Positions 8,450 through 41,132 of a stretch of DNA of 51,974 nucleotides are shown piece after piece. The position numbers and the translations under genes were made by a program. How positions within the stretch are numbered: the stretch's first letter is position 1; each line of letters begins with the position of its first letter. The notes beneath the pieces are model-generated. The model worked only from the letters and a program-made list of their open reading frames with translations, had not been told where the DNA came from and did no database searches. The DNA comes from a virus. The stretch spans positions 83,877 through 135,850 of IMG/VR virus record IMGVR_UViG_3300009117_000047; one strand, given 5' to 3'.

Positions 8450-8521
8450 ATCGGTTTAGTGTAATTGGAAGCACGACGATCTCCAAAATCGTTAGTCTGG
8501 GTTCAAGTCCCAGAATCGGTG
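8450..8521 (+). tRNA. trnW: tRNA-Trp (CCA)
   Basis: Acceptor ATCGGTT/AATCGGT, D arm GTGT/GCAC, anticodon arm ACGAT-CTCCAAA-ATCGT, T arm CTGGG-TTCAAGT-CCCAG, discriminator G; no encoded CCA. Confidence 0.92.
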
Positions 8522-29296: not shown

Positions 29297-30505
29297 ATGA
29301 GCAATCTTTTCGAGATGCTTTTGAAAGTTGGTTTTGATAAAAATTCCGCTAATGCAGAATATCAAAAATTAATTACCGAATTAAAGAAAAATAAATTTGA
29401 AGTAAAGCCTGATATTAACTACGCAAAATCCAAACAAGAAATAGGAAAACAAGTTGCCGATATTGCGAAGATATTTAAAGATGGGTTAAACATAGACGAT
29501 AAGTCTGCTAATAGGTATGCGAAAAGTTATTATAACGAAGTAGTTAAAGGTATCAAGTCTGTTCAAACAGAACAATCTAAACAATTATTACTCGCTAATA
29601 ATATTAAAGCAACGATGTCTCTAGGAAAGCTATCAACAGATTTTTCAAAGGTATCTGCCGATTATAATGGACTATCCAACAAGACTAATTCGCTAGAAAC
29701 ATCGTTCCAGAATCTAAAGCAGTTAAAAACTCAGTTTGAAAACTCAGGTAACAATCAGCAATTGGTTACTAATTATGAAAAATATAGTTCAAGTTTGCAA
29801 GCAGTTCAAAATCAGATTAAACAAATTAATATCGCCAATCAAGCTCTCAACAAAACGGATGCGTTTAGTAGAAATAAAAGTAGTGCTATAAGCAAGATAA
29901 ACTCTTTTATTAAAGAAAACTCTAATTTAACACAAAGTTCAATAGAAAAACTTAACAACCTTGCAACAGCTATGGAGTCTGCTGGCAATCCTAACGCTTT
30001 AAAAAACTTAACAAATGAATCCAACAATTTACAAAGAAGCCTTAAAGCCGCTGGAGAAACTGGTAGAAATTTCGGTGATGAGATGAAAAACAACTTCAAG
30101 AAGTTTTCTACTTGGGTTGGAGCATCAGCTATTTTCTTTGGGGTTCAAAGAGCTATTAAAGGCGTAGTGTCTAATGTAATTGAATTAGATACGGCTATGA
30201 CTTCTCTTTATAAGGTAACTGACGAAACAGATGCAAAGTATAATTCATTCTTACAAAACGCTTATAAGAGTTCACAAAAGTTAGGTCAATCAGTTACTAA
30301 TATAGTAGAACAAACTGCTCAGTGGGCAAAATTAGGTTATGGAGTTGATGATGCAGCTAAATTAGCTGAAATATCTAGTGTATATTCTAACGTTGGTGAA
30401 GTTGATAATCAAACCGCTGTAAAAGATATCGTAACGTCAATGAAGGCATATGGGATAGCCAGCTCTGAAGCTATTAAAATTATTGACTCATATAATAAGT
30501 TGGGT
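29297..30505 (+). CDS. Tape measure protein, exon 1 (403 codons)
   Basis: TP901-type TMP core (ELDTAMTSLYKVTD...WAKLGY...YNKLG); ends at the group I 5' splice site GGT|. Confidence 0.88.
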
Positions 30506-32048
30506 AAATTTGTTGCCCATATATGTAGTAATACATATTTAGCAAGTAGCTATAACGGTTAAAGTCGTATGGGAACGATAAGACCGTGGAAAGATTTATT
30601 AAAGTGTTGAAATATAAAAATAACAAGGAGATATGATTGAGAAAAGAACAATTTTTAAATTATAAAGAGAAAATTACATTTTGTAACAAATGCCAACAAA
30701 ATTTACATATTGATAATTTCAATTATGAAAAAATAAGGCTCAATGGGACAGGAGTTTGTAGGGCTTGTGAGTGGATAGCCGCACATAAAGAAAAAATCAA
30801 TAATTCTACTTATGATGAAAACGTTTTGAAAATAATAGTGCATCAAATCTTTGAAAACGAGTCGTTAAAAATTAACAATCTGGTAAATATTATAAAAATT
30901 GATTTAGATACAATTATCGACATGATAGAATATTTAAAAATTGGTAATAAACATTATTATGTAGATGTTCCATGTGAAGCTTGTAATAAATCAGTTACTG
31001 TCAATCCAGCAAAATATAAATCAAATAAAAATATCTATTGTTCACAAGAATGCTATTGGAATGATAAAACTAATAAAGTGGATAAAGGTAAGGATAGCGT
31101 ATATTATAATAGAATTAAAACTACATGTTCAAATTGCGGAAAAGAAATAGAAATTATTCCATCGCAGTACGATATTATGAATAGGTATAACGATAATCAT
31201 AACTTTTGTTCTCAGAAATGTTATTGGATATATAGAGGAAAGTATTATATAAATGAAAAATCTAATACTTATAATATGAAAATTTCAGAAGATGTTAAAA
31301 ATAGAATGAGAGAAGATTTCGTTAAAAGAATGAGTGGATTAAATAGGCTTAATACAAAACCACAAAAAATTGTTGATGATTTACTAGATGAACTGAATAT
31401 TAAGTATGAAAGAGAATATCCGATTAAGTATTATTCAATTGATAATTATTTAGTTGAGTATAATCTAATGATTGAAGTAATGGGAGATTATTGGCATGCA
31501 AATCCAAATAGATATAATGAAAATAAGTACTCATTAAACAAAATTCAAATGAATGGAATACATAGAGATAAACTTAAACATTCTTATATTTTAAATCATG
31601 AAAATATCGAGATATTATATTTATGGGAATATGATTTAGTTCACGACCCTCAGAAATGTAAAGAATTAATAGATAAATATATTAAAAGTAATGGTGTTTT
31701 GTCAGATTATCATTCATTAAATTATAAAATTATTGATTCTTTACTCACGTGTTGTAAAACAATTGTGCCGTATCAAAACAAAACGGCAGATGAATATAGA
31801 CATTTATTAAAAAACGTAATTTAACAAACACTTTAATAAAAATCCCTAGAGACTGTAATACTTGTTATGGTAACATAATAAGTTTCGCTACTCCCCTACT
31901 TTCATAAAATATGATTGAGGGTGAAGATCCAGTCCGACCTCACACAATAATCCCAAATAAAGAAATGTGAGAGTATGCCAGAAATGACATACCGCCATAT
32001 TAATTATGGTCAGTAGCTATTTTAAATAATAGTGAAAGTAACAGAATG
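30506..32048 (+). ncRNA. Group I intron 1 in the TMP gene (1543 nt, endonuclease-containing)
   Basis: P1 TGGGT/GCCCA with U-G at the splice site; P10 AAATTTGTT pairs with exon 2 AACGAGTTT; P7 GACTG (31851)/CAGTC (31930); terminal G 32048; in-frame join YNKLG|NEFATS. Confidence 0.92.
30637..31824 (+). CDS. Intron-encoded homing endonuclease: Zn-finger repeats plus Vsr/DUF559-like PD-(D/E)XK domain
   Basis: Repeated CxxC...YCSxxC modules, then IDNYL...IEVMGDYWH...RD..K...LYLWE. Looped out by TTTATTAAAGTGTT / AACACTTTAATAAA. Confidence 0.8.
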   Translation: MRKEQFLNYKEKITFCNKCQQNLHIDNFNYEKIRLNGTGVCRACEWIAAHKEKINNSTYDENVLKIIVHQIFENESLKINNLVNIIKIDLDTIIDMIEYLKIGNKHYYVDVPCEACNKSVTVNPAKYKSNKNIYCSQECYWNDKTNKVDKGKDSVYYNRIKTTCSNCGKEIEIIPSQYDIMNRYNDNHNFCSQKCYWIYRGKYYINEKSNTYNMKISEDVKNRMREDFVKRMSGLNRLNTKPQKIVDDLLDELNIKYEREYPIKYYSIDNYLVEYNLMIEVMGDYWHANPNRYNENKYSLNKIQMNGIHRDKLKHSYILNHENIEILYLWEYDLVHDPQKCKELIDKYIKSNGVLSDYHSLNYKIIDSLLTCCKTIVPYQNKTADEYRHLLKNVI

Positions 32049-32450
32049 AACGAGTTTGCAACTTCAGCCGCAGATATTGGTGAAGGCTTAAGAAATTCTG
32101 CATCTGCTTTAGCGTTAGCAGGTAACGACATTAATCAATCAATGGCTATGATTACTGGCGGTGCTGAAATAATGCAAGATGCAGGAGAAATGGGAAATGC
32201 TGTAAAAATTTTAAGTATGCGTTTGCGGGGAATGAAGGGTGAATTAGAAAGCATTGGCGAAGAGTACGAAAATGTAGAATCTATTAGCAAAATTCAGACC
32301 CAAATTTTAAACAGAACAAAAGGTACTGTCAATATTTTCGACGACGCAGGAAATTTTAAAAGCACATACGAAATTATTCAAGGAATTGCTAAAGTTTGGA
32401 ATGATATTTCTCAAGTAGACCAAGCAAGTTTGCTAGAAATTATAGCTGGT
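32049..32450 (+). CDS. Tape measure protein, exon 2 (134 codons)
   Basis: NEFATSAADIGEGL...GNAVKILSMRLRG...FKSTYEI...LLEIIAG, conserved TMP core. Confidence 0.88.
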
Positions 32451-32932
32451 AGATTTTACCAGTATGTACAGAAATGTGCATAAAGAACATATTTAATTGC
32501 AGGTAAAGTGTAAAGCCTTACACCACAATATAGAGGAAACTACTATATGAAGGTACGAAAGTAGAAAAAACGTAAGGATGATATATGGTCAAAAGCCTAA
32601 GTATCTTTAACAATCACAGCTCATGCAGCGAAGCACCCTAACGTATCCCGTAGACCATACGGTACTTTAGTCGAGGGTGAACGTTCAACGACTAGATTCA
32701 TGTCGAGATTTGGACTAGAGAATAAAGGTGGAATCCTGAATATCCAAATCAATAATCGTAGGGCGCAAATTTATGGCGTGGGTGAAACTCCCTTAAATCG
32801 AAAAGGTATGACTGCTATTCTATATTTAGAATGTGGTTAAAAAATAGTCTAAACTTCTGTGGAAGCACAGAGATGTTATTATTGATATATTATAATAACT
32901 AGTGAGCGTTATTAACTCACTGAATATAATTG
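32451..32932 (+). ncRNA. Group I intron 2 in the TMP gene (482 nt, no ORF)
   Basis: P element AATTGCAGG, Q element ATGCAGCGAAG, P7 GACTA (32690)/TAGTC (32845), terminal G 32932; in-frame join IAG|KQRGN; P1 GCTGGT/ACCAGT. Confidence 0.88.
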
Positions 32933-33259
32933 AAGCAACGTGGCAACTCTATAGCCGCTCTCATCCAGTCTTTTCAATCTGGTCAAGCACAAAAAGCATT
33001 ATCCGCAGCTCAAAACTCTTCTGGTTCAGCTATGCAAGAACAAGAACGTTGGTTGAATAGTATCCAAGCTAAGCAACAACAACTTGTAGCTTCAGCTCAA
33101 GAATTTAGCAATACATTTTTATCGTCTTCAACTGTTAAAGGTTCTGTTGATGGTTTAAATTTAATTATTAGTGGACTCACAGATGTAACAAAATTATTAG
33201 GAACAATTCCTACACTTGCAACTATAGCTTTTGGAGTTATGGGAGCAAAAGGTTACGGT
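32933..33259 (+). CDS. Tape measure protein, exon 3 (109 codons)
   Basis: KQRGNSIAAL...NSSGSAMQEQERWLNSIQAK, typical TMP continuation; ends GGT| before the intron 3 core. Confidence 0.85.
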
Positions 33260-33931
33260 AAACATACACCCATATGCCCTGTTTATATTTAATATATAGC
33301 AATCGTTACATATTAAGTGTGAGCTGTCCTTGAGGGTTGGCAGTCAAGGAGTAACAGTTGTGCCATGCAAATATAAATTGAGTTTTCATATTAAATTGCA
33401 TCGGTCAGGTTAAATTGCTGGGAAGTTCTCATGAATCTTATAACTATAATACATAGTAGAAATAGTTTCTGAAAAGTAGAAAAAATCATAAGATTCGACA
33501 TATGGTGAAATAAAAGCATATTAGCGTGATGAACTAGTATGTCCTAAGTGTCATGGAAGTTTAATCAAATTCTTTCAAAGGGATGGTCAGCAGCCAGTCA
33601 CCCTACCCTACTTTGGGTAACGATGTGTGAGCATTGTACTAAAGACATATTTAGACTTGTATCTTGTACTAGGAACAATCTAATTATGGTACAGTTGGTG
33701 GAGGTTCATCGGCTTTAAGCCTCGGAGACTATCATACGAGATTGATAGTCTTTTAATATAAAGTCAGGACTACGCATGAAAAGATTAAATAAAGTGCGTA
33801 ACGGTAGTTTAAAGACTACGGTAAAATGAGTGCATTAAAAATAGTAATAACAAATTTTGACAAAATATATAGATTATTTACAATTGTTGGTATATAATGT
33901 TTATTATATTACTGATGATTGGAGACAGCAT

Positions 33932-34783
33932 ATGAATGTTGATACTAAAACTTTAAAAAATATAATAAAAGGAAATTCAATACATAATCAATGTAAAAAT
34001 CATAAACAAGTATTACGAGAATTTTTATTATTAGAAGACGAAACAATTCAATTAATTAAAGATAAAAAGTGTAAAGACGTAATACCATATATATTATGGA
34101 ATAATTTTGTAAACGATAAAGGAACTTTAGCTCCTAAAACAAAAATACAATACAAAAGATATGTATGGGGACAAAAGGTGTTTGTTGATTTTGGGGCTAC
34201 TAATATTCAAACAGAGCTATCATTCCCTCATCCAGCAATTGTTTTATTTAATTTCGCAAATACAGTAATTATAGTTCCAACAACAACTGATGATAAAACT
34301 TCAGATTTTTCAGAAGACATTGAAGAATCTATTATAAAAGTTAAAAGTGACAATGCAATATTCCCAAAGAATAGTGTTATCAATATTCATCAAATTATGT
34401 CGATTCATAAAGAAAGAATCATTAACGATTTAGGTGTTAATGTTAAAAACTATATAATGGATAAAGTAGAAATAGATAGGTTAAATGAGAATAATAGGTT
34501 TAAATTTTTTCATTATGATTCAAATTTGCTCGACTGTATAAGACTTAAGATAAATTTACAACTTAATAAAGATTATTTTGAGGATTTTTATTTAGAAAGT
34601 GCATATACTGATAATGAAATATATAAATTGAATGATGAAATCAAAAACTTAAAAGAGATAAACAAAAAACTAGAATTATGTATTGACGAAAAAACTAAAT
34701 TATGTTACAATGCAAATACAAGCAATAATTGTTATGAAGATAACTTAAACAAATGTTGCTCTATATTGTCAGCCGAAAGGTGA
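33932..34783 (+). CDS. PemK/MazF-like endoribonuclease-fold protein (intron cargo)
   Basis: WGQKVFVDFG.TNIQTELSFPHPAIVL...VIIVPTT...INIHQIMSIHKERI; ATG 33932 behind GGAG; promoter-like TTGACA at 33857 and TATAAT at 33893. Confidence 0.72.
   Translation: MNVDTKTLKNIIKGNSIHNQCKNHKQVLREFLLLEDETIQLIKDKKCKDVIPYILWNNFVNDKGTLAPKTKIQYKRYVWGQKVFVDFGATNIQTELSFPHPAIVLFNFANTVIIVPTTTDDKTSDFSEDIEESIIKVKSDNAIFPKNSVINIHQIMSIHKERIINDLGVNVKNYIMDKVEIDRLNENNRFKFFHYDSNLLDCIRLKINLQLNKDYFEDFYLESAYTDNEIYKLNDEIKNLKEINKKLELCIDEKTKLCYNANTSNNCYEDNLNKCCSILSAER
34683..34711 (+). promoter_or_regulatory. Sigma-A promoter inside the 3' end of the PemK-like gene
   Basis: TTGACG, 17-nt spacer ending TGT, TACAAT. Confidence 0.65.
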
Positions 34784-34841
34784 GACCGTTAACTTAATGC
34801 TTTAAATGATAAGGAGTAGTGGAAGTGTCCTACTCCTTTTT
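34718..34841 (+). ncRNA. Candidate small RNA (possible RNA antitoxin) overlapping the PemK-like 3' end
   Basis: Bounded by the 34683 promoter and a strong terminator; hairpins AGCAATA/TGTTGCT and GCC-GAAA-GGT; no separate ORF. Confidence 0.4.
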
Positions 34842-34878
34842 GCTTGTTTTAACACTTGTTTTTAGCAAGTGTTTTTTT
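34811..34878 (+). terminator. Tandem intrinsic terminators inside intron 3
   Basis: AAGGAGTAG...CTACTCCTTTTT and AACACTTG...CAAGTGTTTTTTT. Confidence 0.75.
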
Positions 34879-34947
34879 GTTATGTAAAACATTCAAATAT
34901 ATAACAAAATATGGTATACTAAAAATAAAATGCTATGAGGTGAAGTT

Positions 34948-35031
34948 ATGGGAGAAAAAATGGAAAAGTTTGTTTTTATTGTATGCATTGTGGACTTCAA
35001 TCTAGCAAGATGTTTCCCCTACTCAGGTTAA
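34948..35031 (+). pseudogene. Frameshifted, truncated paralog of the Zn-ribbon gene at 36510
   Basis: RBS GAGGTG; adding one A to the A6 run gives MGEKNGKVCFYCMHCG versus MSERNGKICFYCTKCG. Confidence 0.7.
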
Positions 35032-35069
35032 TCTAAAAATTTACTTTGGATTATTTTTCAAATTTTGTA

Positions 35070-35098
35070 TTGACATTACGTAACCTGTATGTTATGGT
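35070..35098 (+). promoter_or_regulatory. Sigma-A promoter of the RHH-BRO unit
   Basis: TTGACA, 17-nt spacer ending TGT, TATGGT. Confidence 0.65.
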
Positions 35099-35131
35099 AT
35101 ATACATGGTACATAAAGAAAGGTGTGATTGC

Positions 35132-35308
35132 ATGGCAGATACAAATTCTAAATCAAGAAAACGTGTAGCAACTACTGTTAATCCTGATATATGGCAAAAC
35201 TTTAAAGTAGCTTGCGTTAAAAGTCAACTTGATATGAATGATGTGTTGGAATTACTTATGCAAGCGTATTCTGATGGTGTCATTAAACTAGAAGATATTT
35301 CAGAATAA
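35132..35308 (+). CDS. Ribbon-helix-helix (CopG/Arc-like) regulator (intron cargo)
   Basis: RKRVATTVNPDIWQNFKVAC...MNDVLELLM pattern; ATG 35132 behind AAGGTG. Confidence 0.7.
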   Translation: MADTNSKSRKRVATTVNPDIWQNFKVACVKSQLDMNDVLELLMQAYSDGVIKLEDISE

Positions 35309-35433
35309 AAAAGATAACCCTCGTCACCGACCAAAGTATCAAGGGTTATCTACATAATGTAATTAAAACAATATCTGTTTTCAATTATACCAAATCTTAA
35401 AAGTTATGTCAAATATAATTTGAAAAGGATGGT

Positions 35434-36252
35434 ATGAGTATGAAAAATGAATTCGCAAATGTAATGATTTTTGAAGGTCATAATGTAGAAGTTTTTGAAT
35501 GGAATGGAAAAATATTATTTAATCCGTATCATGTAGGAAATTGTTTAGACCTTGGCGAAAGTGCTGTAAAAATGGCAATCACTAAAATGAACGGAAAACA
35601 AGTTATTAAACTTACAAACTCTAAAGTCAAAGATGTTGACTTTAGAAAACTACATAATACAGGCGAGAATTTCTTAACTGAAAGTGGAGTATATAAACTT
35701 ATTTTTAAATCTCATAAACCAGAGGCAGAGAAATTCCAAGACTGGGTAACTGATGAAGTTCTTCCTACTATTCGCAAACATGGAATATATGCTACAGATT
35801 CAACTATTGAAACTATACTAAATAATCCAGATACAATGATTGCAGTTTTGCAGGAATTAAAGAGTGAACGAGAACAGAAAATTGCTCTTCAAAAAGAAAA
35901 CACCTTATTGATTCCAGATGCTAAAATGGCTAATGATTTAATGAAATATAACGGATTATATACATTAAAAGAAATTGCAGATTTAATTGAATGTGGACGG
36001 ACAGAACTATGTACCCTACTCCGTATTGGAAAAGTGTTAAGCAAGCAATCTGGTTACAATCTTCCATTGAGAAAGTTCATAGAATCAGGTTATTTTAAAG
36101 TCAAAATACATAGCAACACCAAAGTGCCTGTTACGTTAATTGCTCCGAAAGGGTTGAAATTCATCTATAGGTTAATAAAGAAACTTGATATGACAGATGA
36201 GTTTAATTCAGATTTATTGATTTCAACATATAAAGATAGTGAGGTGGCTTAA
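35434..36252 (+). CDS. BRO-N / KilA-C phage antirepressor (intron cargo)
   Basis: FLTESGVYKLIFKSHKPEAEKFQDWVTDEVLPTIRKHGIY, NPD, C-terminal TLIAPKGLKFI. Confidence 0.9.
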   Translation: MSMKNEFANVMIFEGHNVEVFEWNGKILFNPYHVGNCLDLGESAVKMAITKMNGKQVIKLTNSKVKDVDFRKLHNTGENFLTESGVYKLIFKSHKPEAEKFQDWVTDEVLPTIRKHGIYATDSTIETILNNPDTMIAVLQELKSEREQKIALQKENTLLIPDAKMANDLMKYNGLYTLKEIADLIECGRTELCTLLRIGKVLSKQSGYNLPLRKFIESGYFKVKIHSNTKVPVTLIAPKGLKFIYRLIKKLDMTDEFNSDLLISTYKDSEVA

Positions 36253-36423
36253 ATGAAACCTCAGAAATATCTGAAAGCGATTGTATTGATGTTAGATCAC
36301 TATCATGATACAAAGTTGGTAGAAAAGAAATTTTCTATTAGTGAGTTAGAAGATGCTCGTAAGTGGCTTGCTACATATGATTATGGGAACAACGTGTGTT
36401 TATGTTATGAGATGTACATATGA
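36253..36423 (+). CDS. Small hypothetical protein, 56 aa (intron cargo)
   Basis: RBS GAGGTGG; follows the antirepressor directly; followed by a terminator. Confidence 0.6.
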   Translation: MKPQKYLKAIVLMLDHYHDTKLVEKKFSISELEDARKWLATYDYGNNVCLCYEMYI

Positions 36424-36435
36424 TTACAAAAAATT

Positions 36436-36462
36436 GAGAGTGGAACATTTCACTCTCTTTTT
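36436..36462 (+). terminator. Intrinsic terminator inside intron 3
   Basis: GAGAGTG...CACTCTCTTTTT. Confidence 0.7.
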
Positions 36463-36509
36463 ATGATGTAAAGGATGTGATATAATTAAATAAAAAAGGA
36501 GTTGGGCGC

Positions 36510-36974
36510 ATGAGCGAAAGGAATGGTAAAATTTGTTTTTACTGCACTAAATGCGGTGATTATACTTTTAATGAAGATGATTATGAATACCTTAATAGAA
36601 AATGTTATTATTGTGGTAGCGACATAAAAGAATATGATTTGAAATATTTCTTAAGTAAATATGAAGCAAATGTATTTTCGGATTTAAAAGATAACCAACG
36701 AAAAGAGTTTTTAAGATTATTATACGAAGACTTCATTATAAATAAATCAGAATTTGACGTTAATATATTTAGAGATAATGCAACATTGTCAAATTTAGAA
36801 ATCGTGTTTGACAAAAACAAACCATTGATTAAACCTAAGTGCCCATATTGTCACTCAAACGATACGCATAAAATATCTACCGCTGGAAGGATGATTTCTG
36901 GTGGATTACTTGGGTTCGGATCAGGCAAGATTGGGAAAAGTTGGCATTGTTCTACTTGCAATAGTAATTTCTAA
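36510..36974 (+). CDS. Double Zn-ribbon protein with glycine-rich segment (intron cargo)
   Basis: CTKCG...CYYCG and PKCPYCHS...GGLLGFGSGKIGKSWHCSTC; extended -10 TGATATAAT and RBS AAGGAG. Confidence 0.8.
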   Translation: MSERNGKICFYCTKCGDYTFNEDDYEYLNRKCYYCGSDIKEYDLKYFLSKYEANVFSDLKDNQRKEFLRLLYEDFIINKSEFDVNIFRDNATLSNLEIVFDKNKPLIKPKCPYCHSNDTHKISTAGRMISGGLLGFGSGKIGKSWHCSTCNSNF

Positions 36975-37043
36975 CTTGCAAGCCAAGTATAAATTATCTT
37001 TAATCAAGACCATCATCAAGTCTAGCTTATAAAAAAGATAACG

Positions 37044-40000
37044 AGTATGTTAAGCAGTTTTAAAGGTAAAGACATACTTGGCGGCATGAATAAAGAAACA
37101 TATCTTACTGAATTAGAAAATAAATTAAACGGAAATATAGTTTCATTTAATAAATGGAAGAATGCCTTACCAACAAAAGAACTCCAAGATTTTGCAACAA
37201 AAGCAAAAACGAATGGTGGAGTGATTTCTGATTTTGACTCCTACGTTAAAAAATCATCTCAAGGGTTAAAAGGTCTTTCCTCATCTTTTGGTGCAACTGC
37301 AAAATCAATAGCTTTAAACATGGGCGTAATGTTAGCTATCACATTAGCAATCAAAGGTATTGCTATGGCTTTCGATGCAGTAAATGTTACTTTCGCAGAA
37401 CAAAAAGATAAAGTAGATGGACTGACAGAAGGCTATAATAGTCTTAAAACTGAATTAGATGATTTAAAATCTAAAAATCCATCTAAATTAACTTCAAGCG
37501 AAAAAGAGAGAATGAATTATCTTGAACATAGATTAGAACTTGAAAAACAGCTACTAGATATTGAAAATAGAAAATTAGCTGATAGTGCAATTTATGGCAA
37601 GGGAGATATTACTAGCGGAGGAATTCAGGCTACAACCGCAAATTTAAATTCTGAATTTATACTAAGTGGTGGAGTCATAGATAGTAATATCGAAAAGCTG
37701 AATAATTTAAAGACTTCTTTTCAAAATCTTGATACGAGCAGTCCTAACTTTAAGCAAAGATTAGAAGACTTAAATGCTAGAGAGCAAAAAATAAATGACA
37801 CTTTAGAAGAAAGAAAAAATAAATATATTGAGCTTGAATCTGGGTATCTTAAAAATGCTGAAGATATTCGTTCATATATTGATGCTGGTGTTTATAGTAA
37901 CGACAAGAAGGCTTTAGAAGATGCAAAGTCTCTCATGGACTATAACCTAAAACAAGCTGATTTAGTAAAACAACGAATATTTGAGATTGAAGGAACTATA
38001 GGTAACGAGGACTTCTTCTCGTCTGCCGTATTTAAAACAGTTGAATCCGATTTAAAGGAATTAGCCAAACAAGGTAAATTGACCTCTGATGCTTTAGCAG
38101 ACAATAAGTATTCAGAACTAAATGAGTTGATGAAATCTTTAGGGATATCTATCGAAGATTTAGTCAAAAAACTTAATGGTGTATCAGATTCAGAGCAAGC
38201 ATTCTCCCCTCTTACATCTGCTATAAATGAATACGAAGATGCTATTTCTGCTATACCTGAAAAATTAGCTGAAATTGAAGAAATCCAAGATAAAGTTAAT
38301 GATGGTTATTCATATAGTTACGATGAGATTGAAAAATTAAGAGCGAAGTATCCAGAGTTAGAAAGTGCTATTTATCGTACTGCTGACGGATGGGGAATAG
38401 AAAAAGAAGCTGTAGATTTGTTGCATGGTTCTGTTGGTGATTTGGGTGAACAATATAAAACCGTTCAATCCGTAATGACCGAAGCATTAAATTCTGATGT
38501 AGCAACTAGACTATCTAATTTAGGTATTGAACTTGAAGGAATTAAAACAATAGCAGATGCTTATGCGGCTATTGCAGGGGCTAGACAGAAAGCAGGTGGA
38601 GCCACACCTTTATCTAATGGTGCTGCTGGAGCAACTTTGCCTTCAAAAGATGCGGATTTATCAAAATTAATAAACATTTCAGCTTATAGTCAGGATGCGA
38701 TTAATTTTGGAAAAGAAGCTGAAAGACTTTCTGCTCTCCAAGAAAAACTTAAAGATTTGCAGTCAGGTAGAGTATCGGGTGGTTCACCATCAAAATCTAA
38801 ATCATCTAAAGAAACAGAAGCATACAAAGCTCAAATTGATGCTTATGCTAAACTTCAAGCTGAACTAGACAAAATTCAAGCTGACATTTCTGCCAATGAA
38901 AAGAAATTTAATGATACAAAAGACGATAAAGAAAAAATCTATCTACTTCAACAAAGGATTGCTCTCACCCAGCAAGAACAGGTGGCACTACATAATCTCA
39001 ATAATGCAAGAGATAAAGAGATAGCTAATAACGTTAAATTATTACAGCAAAAAGGATTTGATGTTAGCTATAATCCTGATTCTAATAACTTAGAAATTAG
39101 TAATTTAGAACATTTGAATGACTTAAAAGGTAAGAATCAAGAAAAGACAAACGACCTAATTAAAGAGTATGAGGAATTAATTAAATCTACTCAATCTCTG
39201 AACGAAGAGAATAAAAAATCATCTACTTCTTGGTGGGATAGTTATTATAATTTGTCTAAGTATAAGGATGAAATTAAAGACCTTAACGAAGAAATTTATA
39301 ATAAAGAGGTAGATAATCAAGAGCACTTATTAGAATTGTTATCTTCTGTTAGTGGAACTGAATCTCAACAAATTGCCATTCGTGAAGATATGCAAAAAAG
39401 AGCATTGCAGAGAAGACAAGAGTTGATAAATGATGACTATAGTCTTCATGTTGAAGAGATCAGAAAGTTGGAAAATGACTGGAAATCTTACTATGATAAA
39501 GTTCTTGAGTTACAAAAACAACAGTTAGAAAATGAAAAAAAATTATTAGAACAGCAAAAATCTGATAGAGATTCTGCCCTCTCTGCTATCACAAGTGCAA
39601 TAGATGATGAAATTAGTAAGCTTCAAAAAGAGAAAGATGCCTTATCTGAAGCAAATGATGAGCGTGAAAGAAAGCTTAAGCTTCAAGAGTTGGAAGCTAA
39701 TGCAGAAAAAGCTCGTTCTCAAAAGACTGCTTATATTTATCGTGAGAATAAGGGTTTTACTTACGAAGCTGATCAAACTGCTATTACAGATGCTAATAAT
39801 GCTATCAATGATTATAAAGCAGAACAAGCGTTAAAAGATAAGCAAAAAGCCTTACAAGATGAAATTGATAGTCTACAAGAATATAAATCCAAATGGGAAG
39901 AAGTAGCAAATGCTGTTGAGGAACAAGAAAATAAACAAAAAGCAGCGATGTTACTTGGATCAAATTGGAAAAGTAAAATTATTGGTCAGGATACCACTGT

Positions 40001-41132
40001 TTTATCAGATTTCAAAAACGATTATATAGATGTAGAAAAATCAATTAATGAAAAAACCAAAGACATAGAAACAATTACCACAGAATTAGCTAATCATCTT
40101 GACACTGAGTTCACCAGAATTATTAAGTCATTTGAAGATATGACTAAAGCTATTGGTGGAGCATTTGGTATTGAAGTCACAGATGAGGCTAACAAAGAAA
40201 GCATCCCAACTCCTGCTTCCGAATCAAAACAAAAATCATCAACTAGCTTTTGGGATAAAATTGTTGGTAAGGTAACGGGAGTATTTGATTTATTAACAGG
40301 TAGTACGTCTAATAATACTAGCACGTTAGAAGAAAACAATACCAACTTAAAAACTTCGTCTAGCACACAAAAGACCAATACTGATGAAGTTAAGAACAAT
40401 TCAACAAACGTAAAAAGTAATAGCACTTACGTTGATGCGAATAGTACCAAATTATCCGATAATAGCTCATCTGTTGACACAAATAGTGATAACGTCGAAA
40501 CATTAAACGATACGCTGGTTACTTCGACTGACAAGATTGTTAAAGCCGCAGAAACTGTAGCAACTGCTAAAGAGTCTAAATCTGAAGATGGTGATTCTAG
40601 TTCAAGTGGTAGCTCAAGCTCCAGCAGAAGTGGCAGTAGTGTTATTGGTAAAGTTATTAGCGGAATTGGCAAAGTAATTGGTGGATTAACCAAACGTCAC
40701 TCTGGTGGTATTATTGGCGATACCTCCGATAAGTCTAAAGCGTTGTTTGAACTTTCAAACCAGAAACTTAAATCAGATGAAGAAGTTATAGTCGGACAGA
40801 GCGGAGAACTTGTTTTAACGAAAGAACAACAGAGTAATATTGTAGACAGATTGAACCAAATGTCAGCTTATGACCAATCGTTATTTTCAAGTTTATCTTC
40901 TAACTTGGGTAATTACACTGGTTATTTGCCAAACAATTTCAATGTTCCCACTGGTACAATTAGTGATTATAGCGTTAATGGTAATAGTAATAAAAACACA
41001 GTACCACAGCAAACTATTCATATTGCGAATGTAAACTTCTCAGATATTCAAGAAGTAAAACAGATTCAGGAAGCAATTCTTACGTTGCCTCAATATGTAG
41101 CACAAAAATCAACCAGTGGATACAATAGATAA
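37044..41132 (+). CDS. Tape measure protein, exon 4 (1362 aa, coiled-coil C-terminal part)
   Basis: Long coiled coil, hydrophobic TMP segment, C-terminal HSGGIIG...GELVLT motif; no SD sequence before ATG 37047, consistent with an exon. Confidence 0.82.
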   Translation, partial: SMLSSFKGKDILGGMNKETYLTELENKLNGNIVSFNKWKNALPTKELQDFATKAKTNGGVISDFDSYVKKSSQGLKGLSSSFGATAKSIALNMGVMLAITLAIKGIAMAFDAVNVTFAEQKDKVDGLTEGYNSLKTELDDLKSKNPSKLTSSEKERMNYLEHRLELEKQLLDIENRKLADSAIYGKGDITSGGIQATTANLNSEFILSGGVIDSNIEKLNNLKTSFQNLDTSSPNFKQRLEDLNAREQKINDTLEERKNKYIELESGYLKNAEDIRSYIDAGVYSNDKKALEDAKSLMDYNLKQADLVKQRIFEIEGTIGNEDFFSSAVFKTVESDLKELAKQGKLTSDALADNKYSELNELMKSLGISIEDLVKKLNGVSDSEQAFSPLTSAINEYEDAISAIPEKLAEIEEIQDKVNDGYSYSYDEIEKLRAKYPELESAIYRTADGWGIEKEAVDLLHGSVGDLGEQYKTVQSVMTEALNSDVATRLSNLGIELEGIKTIADAYAAIAGARQKAGGATPLSNGAAGATLPSKDADLSKLINISAYSQDAINFGKEAERLSALQEKLKDLQSGRVSGGSPSKSKSSKETEAYKAQIDAYAKLQAELDKIQADISANEKKFNDTKDDKEKIYLLQQRIALTQQEQVALHNLNNARDKEIANNVKLLQQKGFDVSYNPDSNNLEISNLEHLNDLKGKNQEKTNDLIKEYEELIKSTQSLNEENKKSSTSWWDSYYNLSKYKDEIKDLNEEIYNKEVDNQEHLLELLSSVSGTESQQIAIREDMQKRALQRRQELINDDYSLHVEEIRKLENDWKSYYDKVLELQKQQLENEKKLLEQQKSDRDSALSAITSAIDDEISKLQKEKDALSEANDERERKLKLQELEANAEKARSQKTAYIYRENKGFTYEADQTAITDANNAINDYKAEQALKDKQKALQDEIDSLQEYKSKWEEVANAVEEQENKQKAAMLLGSNWKSKIIGQDTTVLSDFKNDYIDVEKSINEKTKDIETITTELANHLDTEFTRIIKSFEDMTKAIGGAFGIEVTDEANKESIPTPASESKQKSSTSFWDKIVGKVTGVFDLLTGSTSNNTSTLEENNTNLKTSSSTQKTNTDEVKNNSTNVKSNSTYVDANSTKLSDNSSSVDTNSDNVETLNDTLVTSTDKIVKAAETVATAKESKSEDGDSSSSGSSSSSRSGSSVIGKVISGIGKVIGGLTKRHSGGIIGDTSDKSKALFELSNQKLKSDEEVIVGQSGELVLTKEQQSNIVDRLNQMSAYDQSLFSSLSSNLGNYTGYLPNNFNVPTGTISDYSVNGNSNKNTVPQQTIHIANVNFSDIQEVKQIQEAILTLPQYVAQKSTSGYNR

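Follow-up and report, generated by a model that had tools for sequence, protein, structure and literature searches.

Here we describe, in a 51,974-nucleotide (nt) stretch of viral DNA (hereafter the window; positions 83,877 to 135,850 of the IMG/VR record IMGVR_UViG_3300009117_000047), a gene for an enlarged protein of the PemK/MazF toxin fold that is followed, on the same strand, by a conserved gene for a small RNA with its own predicted promoter. An earlier note on this DNA, made from its letters alone, had proposed a separately promoted small RNA gene after the MazF-fold gene, and relatives of the gene, which lay beyond that reader's view, bear the proposal out. We take the pair, with slightly better than even confidence, to be a type-III-like toxin/RNA-antitoxin module, in which the small RNA is probably the toxin's antidote. 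The features of the locus, in window coordinates, are as follows.

33857..33898, + strand: predicted promoter of the toxin gene, TTGACA (33857-33862), 16 nt, TACAAT (33879-33884)
33932..34783, + strand: toxin open reading frame (ORF), an enlarged PemK/MazF-fold protein of 283 amino acids (aa)
34683..34711, + strand: predicted small-RNA promoter, TTGACG-17-TACAAT with TG upstream, inside the last toxin codons
34718..34845, + strand: predicted small RNA of ~125 nt, its ends predicted from the -10 box (5') and the terminator (3')
34761..34812, + strand: conserved RNA core, CUAUAUU, hairpin P1, then CCGUUAACUUAAUGCUUUAAAUG
34768..34786, + strand: hairpin P1, GUC-A-GCC GAAA GGU-GA-GAC
34811..34841, + strand: intrinsic terminator, common to toxin mRNA and small RNA, AAGGAGUAG / CUACUCCUU plus U-run
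34851..34880, + strand: second, back-up terminator, a 10-bp stem plus T-run (z -4.0)

The promoter at 34683-34711 and the terminator at 34811-34841 lie where the earlier note had placed them. Promoter-like sites are common here, with 36 in 4.3 kb against 24.6 +/- 5.1 in shuffles, and the site at 34683-34711 is not significant alone. The first terminator, a 9-bp stem (34811-34819 with 34830-34838) followed by a T-run to 34841, lies 28 nt past the toxin stop codon, which is the place expected for the gene's own terminator. The ~120-nt stretch between the two had been called structured; the energy argument for this is weak, because the body without either terminator (34718-34808) is no more stable than shuffled sequence (z -1.5) and 34718-34845, without the second terminator, gives z -1.8, and the support for structure comes instead from conservation and covariation. 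Each of these observations could be met by a chance promoter-like site in AT-rich DNA together with the gene's ordinary terminator. We find that explanation scarcely credible, since the element is conserved and covarying in 64 sources and absent from 79 control loci. Searches of Rfam returned only tRNA for the whole window at gathering thresholds, no match at the RNA element for the region 30300-37300 at E<=5, and no match for the related loci at E<=1.

Relatives were fetched by protein similarity (metagenomes supplied 64 loci, and viral and genome collections a further 8; loci are referred to below by L numbers), and their proteins are ~40-59% identical to the window toxin. Downstream of their stop codons we found a common layout, consisting of a TTGACA-17/18 promoter, a -10 box, a variable leader, CUAUNUU, the hairpin, (A/C)NUNAACU..AUGCUUUAAAUG, and then a GC-rich terminator hairpin; the promoter and the terminator are present in most lineages. 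The TTGACA hexamer, invariant and with a spacing of 17-18 nt, recurs in lineages with non-alignable flanks, and such promoters precede the RNA in L002, L004, L005-L007, L133, L136, L159 and L203. Across 15 distinct sequences, 19 columns of the RNA core are invariant. The base and internal loop of P1 (GUC-A-G ... U-GA-GAC) do not vary at all in the relatives, and its upper stem occurs as GCC/GGU, GUC/GGU, GCUC/GAGU, GUUC/GAGU, GCCC/GGGU, GCGC/GCGU, GCCUC/GAGGU, GCCUUA/UAAGGU and GCCUAAAU/AUUUAGGU. In the 15-sequence alignment, 99% of P1 cells are paired, as opposed to 23-45% when the 3' partner columns are slid; the pair 14-27 is CG in 8 sequences, UA in 6 and GC in 1, and the covariation score of P1 was reached by none of 500 shuffles. 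The terminator stem is conserved in sequence in Lachnospiraceae-type relatives, and L004 carries a double compensatory change (AGGAGUAG/CUACUCCU versus GAGAGUAG/CUACUCUC in L004). Judged from the recurrence of promoter, 54-position core and terminator, together with the covariation, the RNA element is real. Its P1 stems differ in length among relatives by 2, 3, 6 and 8 nt, and a coding region is therefore excluded; a small peptide encoded in the RNA was ruled out in this way, the 2- and 8-nt differences breaking any frame. We also considered a long-range helix between AGCA... in the 5' leader and ...UGCU; the window and the L005 and L006 types allow it, L002 and L004 do not, and we do not claim it.

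Two further observations concern the surroundings of the RNA. In L138-type loci a 7-bp inverted repeat, ATCTGCA-N11-TGCAGAT with TATAAT (1909-1935 in L138), lies directly after the toxin stop and upstream of the RNA promoter, and L006-type loci have a less perfect version in the same place; the repeat may serve as an operator or as a hairpin at the 3' end of the mRNA. In L003, a partial second copy of the hairpin follows the RNA of the MazF-like gene.

The RNA is tightly linked to the toxin gene. A covariance model of the 54-position core (R1), which scores the window core at 68.9 bits (E 7e-13), found a match in 64 of the 73 sources with a family member, exactly one in each, on the strand of the gene and just 3' of it; it found none in 79 unrelated control loci, which had been picked for containing a loose version of the RNA motif. 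The nine sources that it missed are five contigs that break off within the gene or immediately past it, three truncated remnants, and L135, whose gene is 100% identical to that of L133 from residue 30 on, lacks the first ~29 codons and is bordered on either side by unrelated DNA. The toxin gene at L009 5001-5339, cut after ~80 codons by another prophage, is without the RNA, as are the N-terminal-only remnants in L195 and L196. Among the sources examined, no intact toxin gene without the RNA was found.

The RNA itself occurs as 18 distinct sequences, with one copy per genome tested. When 185,579 species genomes were scanned with an exact pattern, 10 matches came up, 9 of which fit the element; the remaining match, in Gluconobacter, has no hairpin and is unmatched by R1. 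In a sample of 151 Oscillospiraceae the RNA was present in only two genomes, both already known, as expected of a sporadic mobile cassette. Five of the nine species-level genomes have the RNA after a family gene, and the other four have no family member nearby or elsewhere in the assembly. These stand-alone RNAs, which may be orphan antitoxins or RNAs with a role of their own, are located as follows.

L039:4548-4602, beside an integrase
L198:851-902, - strand, after an XRE regulator gene, in Roseburia
L202:4682-4735
L203:6964-7017, ~570 nt after lysS

The copy in L203 has a consensus promoter (TTGACA-17-TATACT) with no toxin-like ORF nearby, and no promoter was seen before the copies in L202 and L039. 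That the RNA is sometimes found without the toxin, and the intact toxin never without the RNA, is the asymmetry expected of an antitoxin, and it also leaves room for an independent function of the RNA. The most serious alternative is that the RNA is real and linked and is not an antitoxin, acting instead as a 3'-untranslated-region or small-RNA element governing how stable the toxin mRNA is or how it is translated, or as a prophage small RNA that has its own targets and shares a mobile cassette with the gene. The four genomes that hold the RNA alone, and the promoter of the L203 copy in particular, fit this reading. It is also in keeping with the probable presence of the element in the 3' end of the toxin mRNA, which we propose because we saw no terminator separating the two. 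Nevertheless, a small RNA unrelated to the toxin would not be expected to stay with one gene family at ~40-59% protein identity while all other neighbours change, and the energies of pairing between the RNA and the toxin start region are inconsistent over 11 loci (z -2.5 to +1.2), with no common site. We therefore regard this alternative as unlikely, though it deserves attention. The lack of consistent complementarity to the toxin start makes an antisense (type I) mechanism unlikely as well; the RNA lies on the toxin gene's own strand.

With regard to the protein, the open frame spans 33857-34783, and the earlier note had begun the ORF at 33857. We place the start codon at ATG 33932, because all 21 aligned homologues begin there and a GGAG box lies upstream; TTG 33857 belongs to the -35 hexamer of the TTGACA-16-TACAAT promoter. 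A TGGTATATAAT box (33888-33898) follows the -10 box of this promoter and is also found upstream of the gene in L002 and L004. Assignment to the PemK/MazF fold, which the earlier note had made from the ORF translation, withstood searches by sequence and by structure. The sole significant Pfam match of the protein is PemK_toxin (PF02452; 35.9 bits versus a cut-off of 23.1, E 9.3e-9, residues 83-180), the same search gave no match to ToxN_toxin (PF13958), and in PHROG the protein falls to two families of moron proteins labelled MazF/MazE. With the family alignment as input, AlphaFold2 gave a model of high confidence for residues ~100-250 (pLDDT, the predicted local distance difference test, about 87-93 over the core), and the best Foldseek match in the PDB is B. 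subtilis MazF (E 1.9e-6), with the MazF proteins of S. aureus, B. anthracis and M. tuberculosis also among the best matches (probability 1.00). As modelled, the protein is predicted to carry the MazF/Kid SH3-like barrel fold.

The protein consists of a conserved N-terminal region (residues ~1-75), the MazF-like barrel (~76-190) and a C-terminal coiled coil (~199-261). Members of the family are ~250-285 aa long and conserved end to end, with a long C-terminal helix, an invariant P-x-I-x-W-N motif in the N-terminal region and many polar residues that are invariant across the homologue alignment. A profile search of 1.84 billion representative proteins gave 190 clusters at E<=1e-3, mostly of 210-290 aa, whose named members bear only the annotation 'PemK/MazF family toxin'; among GenBank phages there was no match for the toxin protein, for the 12-kb region or for the RNA. 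The window copy has in addition a C-terminal tail of ~25 aa that its relatives do not have. This tail crosses the RNA promoter, and the TGA stop codon (34781-34783) falls in the 3' strand of the RNA hairpin, so that the arrangement in the window is unusually compact.

The end-to-end conservation of the family bears on a second alternative, in which the protein acts alone as an auto-inhibited nuclease for defence, comparable to Sma or to the fused toxin-antitoxin CapRel; its N-terminal segment or coiled coil would block the MazF domain until a phage trigger arrives, and the RNA would be an accessory. Both extensions are conserved over their full length, the family is found at moron positions in prophages, and a published MazF-like system has been described as single-protein (PMC12409344, PMC13660305). 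This explanation leaves unaccounted for the promoter, covarying hairpin and terminator that stand beside every intact copy; moreover, the N-terminal region is modelled poorly (pLDDT <50, residues 40-69), and the model gives no ground for docking it onto the active site. We consider it distinctly improbable.

A protein antitoxin is the usual companion of such a toxin, and the earlier note had seen none upstream. An all-against-all comparison of ORFs within 2 kb of the gene found no family shared across lineages, barring spurious frames over the RNA itself, and by this measure the toxin family has no conserved protein partner. What lies beside the gene changes from one locus to the next:

L002: tail protein
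L003: ToxN-like gene and anti-repressor
L004: holin and endolysin
L005: IS200/IS605-like element (from a reading of the ORFs)
L006: XRE regulators

In L003 (2610-5681), on a 139-kb IMG/VR contig, the MazF-like gene comes directly after a gene resembling ToxN (PF13958, E 9.5e-4) and one for an ORF6N/KilAC anti-repressor, so that two RNase-toxin genes lie next to each other.

In the window, the candidate for a protein antitoxin is a ribbon-helix-helix (RHH) protein encoded downstream, which the earlier note had named as the possible neutraliser in place of the RNA.

35105-35308: RHH gene, with its own promoter at 35070-35098 and weak ParG/RHH matches (E 1.3e-3)
35434-36252: anti-repressor gene, Bro-N plus KilAC, directly downstream of the RHH gene

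RHH folds are common among antitoxins, and a reversed type II arrangement with this protein as antitoxin would be consistent with its weak ParG/RHH matches. Against this, two terminators and the separate promoter part the toxin gene from the RHH gene, the RHH gene is not conserved beside relatives of the toxin, and it lies directly upstream of the anti-repressor gene with a candidate antisense RNA between them. The latter would start from a perfect minus-strand TTGACA-17-TATAAT promoter (35412-35384) and run to a hairpin (stem 35313-35350) with a U-run, giving an RNA of ~65-80 nt with weak resemblance to ctRNA_pT181 (31.5 bits, E 0.28). The layout of RHH gene, anti-repressor gene and antisense RNA candidate resembles that of the immI region of phage P22 (arc-ant-sar). 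Because of this likeness, and because the RHH gene is not conserved with the toxin family, the RHH protein is better read as the regulator of the anti-repressor, and we hold its being the antitoxin to be very improbable.

How, then, might the toxin and the RNA work together? In the mechanism that we propose, the toxin gene would be transcribed from its own promoter into an mRNA that carries the RNA sequence in its 3' end, and the near-consensus promoter inside the last toxin codons (34683-34711) would add the free ~125-nt RNA, ended by the same terminator (34811-34841), so that RNA is in excess. The invariant internal-loop hairpin and its conserved single-stranded flanks would occupy the RNA-binding groove of the MazF-like dimer, so that the nuclease stays inactive. 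Should the supply of RNA stop, through loss of the prophage or through an infecting phage that shuts off transcription, the nuclease would be freed and the cell arrested, the outcome being addiction or abortive-infection defence. Direct neutralisation of the protein by the RNA is in our analysis the most economical reading, because the partner protein has an RNA-binding nuclease fold and antisense pairing is unlikely. A part in defence or addiction had been suggested in the earlier note, along with stabilisation of the intron carrying the module, and we infer the former and the antitoxin role of the RNA on the same conditional footing as any effect on intron stability.

Several points weigh against the proposal of an RNA antitoxin. 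When the protein is aligned by profile to a canonical MazF of 118 aa from a phage, at an alignment probability of only 54%, an invariant His100 occupies the position of the catalytic Arg (the 'RP' motif) and the catalytic Thr of the 'PxT' motif is kept (T118, in PTTTDD); the catalytic pair of the PemK/MazF family is thus present in its Thr and replaced by His in its Arg, and the protein may or may not be an active nuclease. As in single-protein systems, restraint could come from the conserved N-terminal segment or the coiled coil in place of the RNA. A few gut prophages, in nearly identical copies, account for many of the 64 loci, which amount to ~10-12 independent lineages. That 4 of the 9 species-level genomes hold the RNA without the protein may point to a function of its own. 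Finally, the anatomy differs from that of every described type III system.

The cassette resides in a prophage, the source record being a provirus of 135.8 kb of which the window forms one part. The tape-measure protein encoded in the window is similar to those of large Clostridia siphoviruses and SPbeta-like phages, and four pieces of the window align, in the same order, to parts of the 1508-aa tape-measure protein of Enterocloster phage PMBT24:

window 29996-30502: PMBT24 aa 45-215
window 32049-32453: PMBT24 aa 217-343
window 32951-33283: PMBT24 aa 349-454
window 39513-39980: PMBT24 aa 1146-1327

Because of this collinear alignment, we read the tape-measure gene (29297-41132) as interrupted three times:

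29297-30562, 32046-32483, 32930-33292, 37047-41132: the four collinear pieces of the tape-measure gene
30563-32045: insertion 1, with a Vsr/DUF559-like homing endonuclease ORF (PADLOC HEase, E 1.8e-7)
32484-32929: insertion 2, without an ORF, with a sub-threshold group I intron (RF00028) match at 32740-32872 (E 6.5e-4)
33293-37046: insertion 3, the largest at 3.75 kb, a five-gene island that holds the MazF-like cassette

Besides the cassette, insertion 3 holds the RHH gene, the anti-repressor gene and two small genes, and sites resembling promoters and terminators accompany each of them. The earlier note had spoken of an intron that carries the module; the group I intron model RF00028 lends a reading of insertion 3 as one intron no support, having no match within it, and no sequence similarity was found among the tape-measure insertions. 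The cassette is best explained as an accessory gene (moron) of a large SPbeta-like prophage. Elsewhere in the provirus, a tRNA gene lies at window positions 8450-8521 (57.3 bits). At 3220-3983 of L010, amid the tail genes of PMBT24, lies a gene for a canonical 118-aa MazF ('mRNA interferase') with no annotated antitoxin adjoining, and the gene that follows encodes a 'macoilin family protein' of 124 aa.

MazF/PemK serves as the textbook example of a type II toxin, and teaching always pairs it with a protein antitoxin. It is quite possible, in our estimate a little short of even, that the enlarged 'orphan' PF02452 MazF/PemK toxins represent a new toxin-antitoxin (TA) arrangement, in which the antidote is a single-copy structured RNA encoded downstream, transcribed from its own strong promoter and also present in the 3' end of the toxin mRNA. 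If so, a branch of MazF restrained by RNA would blur the boundary between types II and III, and many annotations of 'orphan' MazF in Bacillota prophages would be explained. The locus would then be a compact cassette of ~1 kb for phage defence or for stabilisation of mobile elements, and GUC-A-G...U-GA-GAC would be a new, small and highly conserved protein-binding RNA motif. The 'single-protein' MazF-like antiphage systems would also merit a second look, since the cloned fragments may include an unnoticed RNA gene; if Sma-like systems prove to be of the same kind, they too would be protein-RNA pairs.

Several known systems invite comparison. The pemK RNA motif (RF02913), which takes its name from pemK genes, is a candidate structured RNA from Bacillota, and the earlier note had invoked such a motif as precedent. 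The element described here is a different RNA; when we ran the Rfam check, RF02913 had no match at 34718-34845, and its best score in the 135-kb record was 7.9 bits elsewhere, against a threshold of 34.8. Full-text literature searches for MazF-type toxins with RNA antitoxins, and for orphan MazF, returned nothing that describes such a layout. Among the closest published systems is Sma, an enlarged MazF-like protein without a protein antitoxin that is encoded on a phage-related mobile element and is reported to block phages (PMC12409344, PMC13660305, PMC12829572). The window toxin is like Sma in these three respects (size, lack of a protein antitoxin and phage-related mobile setting), a likeness by description only, and differs in its RNA, no RNA partner being mentioned in the published descriptions (PMC12409344, PMC13660305, PMC12829572). 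PADLOC 2.0 gave no match for the window toxin, and a cluster look-up of ten relatives (215-229 aa) yielded no staphylococcal accession.

In comparison with type I TA systems, the RNA described here lies on the same strand as the toxin and is not antisense to it. With type II MazEF and PemIK (Kis-Kid) the protein shares its toxin domain family and fold, as well as the PxT motif with T118. It differs in being 2.5 times longer, with conserved N- and C-terminal extensions and His100 at the position of the catalytic Arg, and in having neither a MazE/PemI gene nor any adjacent, co-transcribed protein antitoxin. Type III systems (ToxIN/AbiQ, CptIN, TenpIN) are found on mobile elements and are linked to phage defence. 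Their toxins are ToxN/AbiQ (PF13958), CptN or TenpN, whereas the toxin here belongs to PF02452, and their RNA is a tandem direct-repeat array encoded upstream of the toxin with a leaky terminator, whereas here the RNA is single-copy and lies downstream with its own promoter; no ToxI-like tandem repeats were found near the toxin gene, and the anatomy of type III systems, which the earlier note had cited for comparison, does not extend to this locus. What the module would share with type III systems, if our proposal is correct, is their central feature, an endoribonuclease of the Kid/MazF-like structural class that is kept inactive by a small structured RNA from an adjoining gene.

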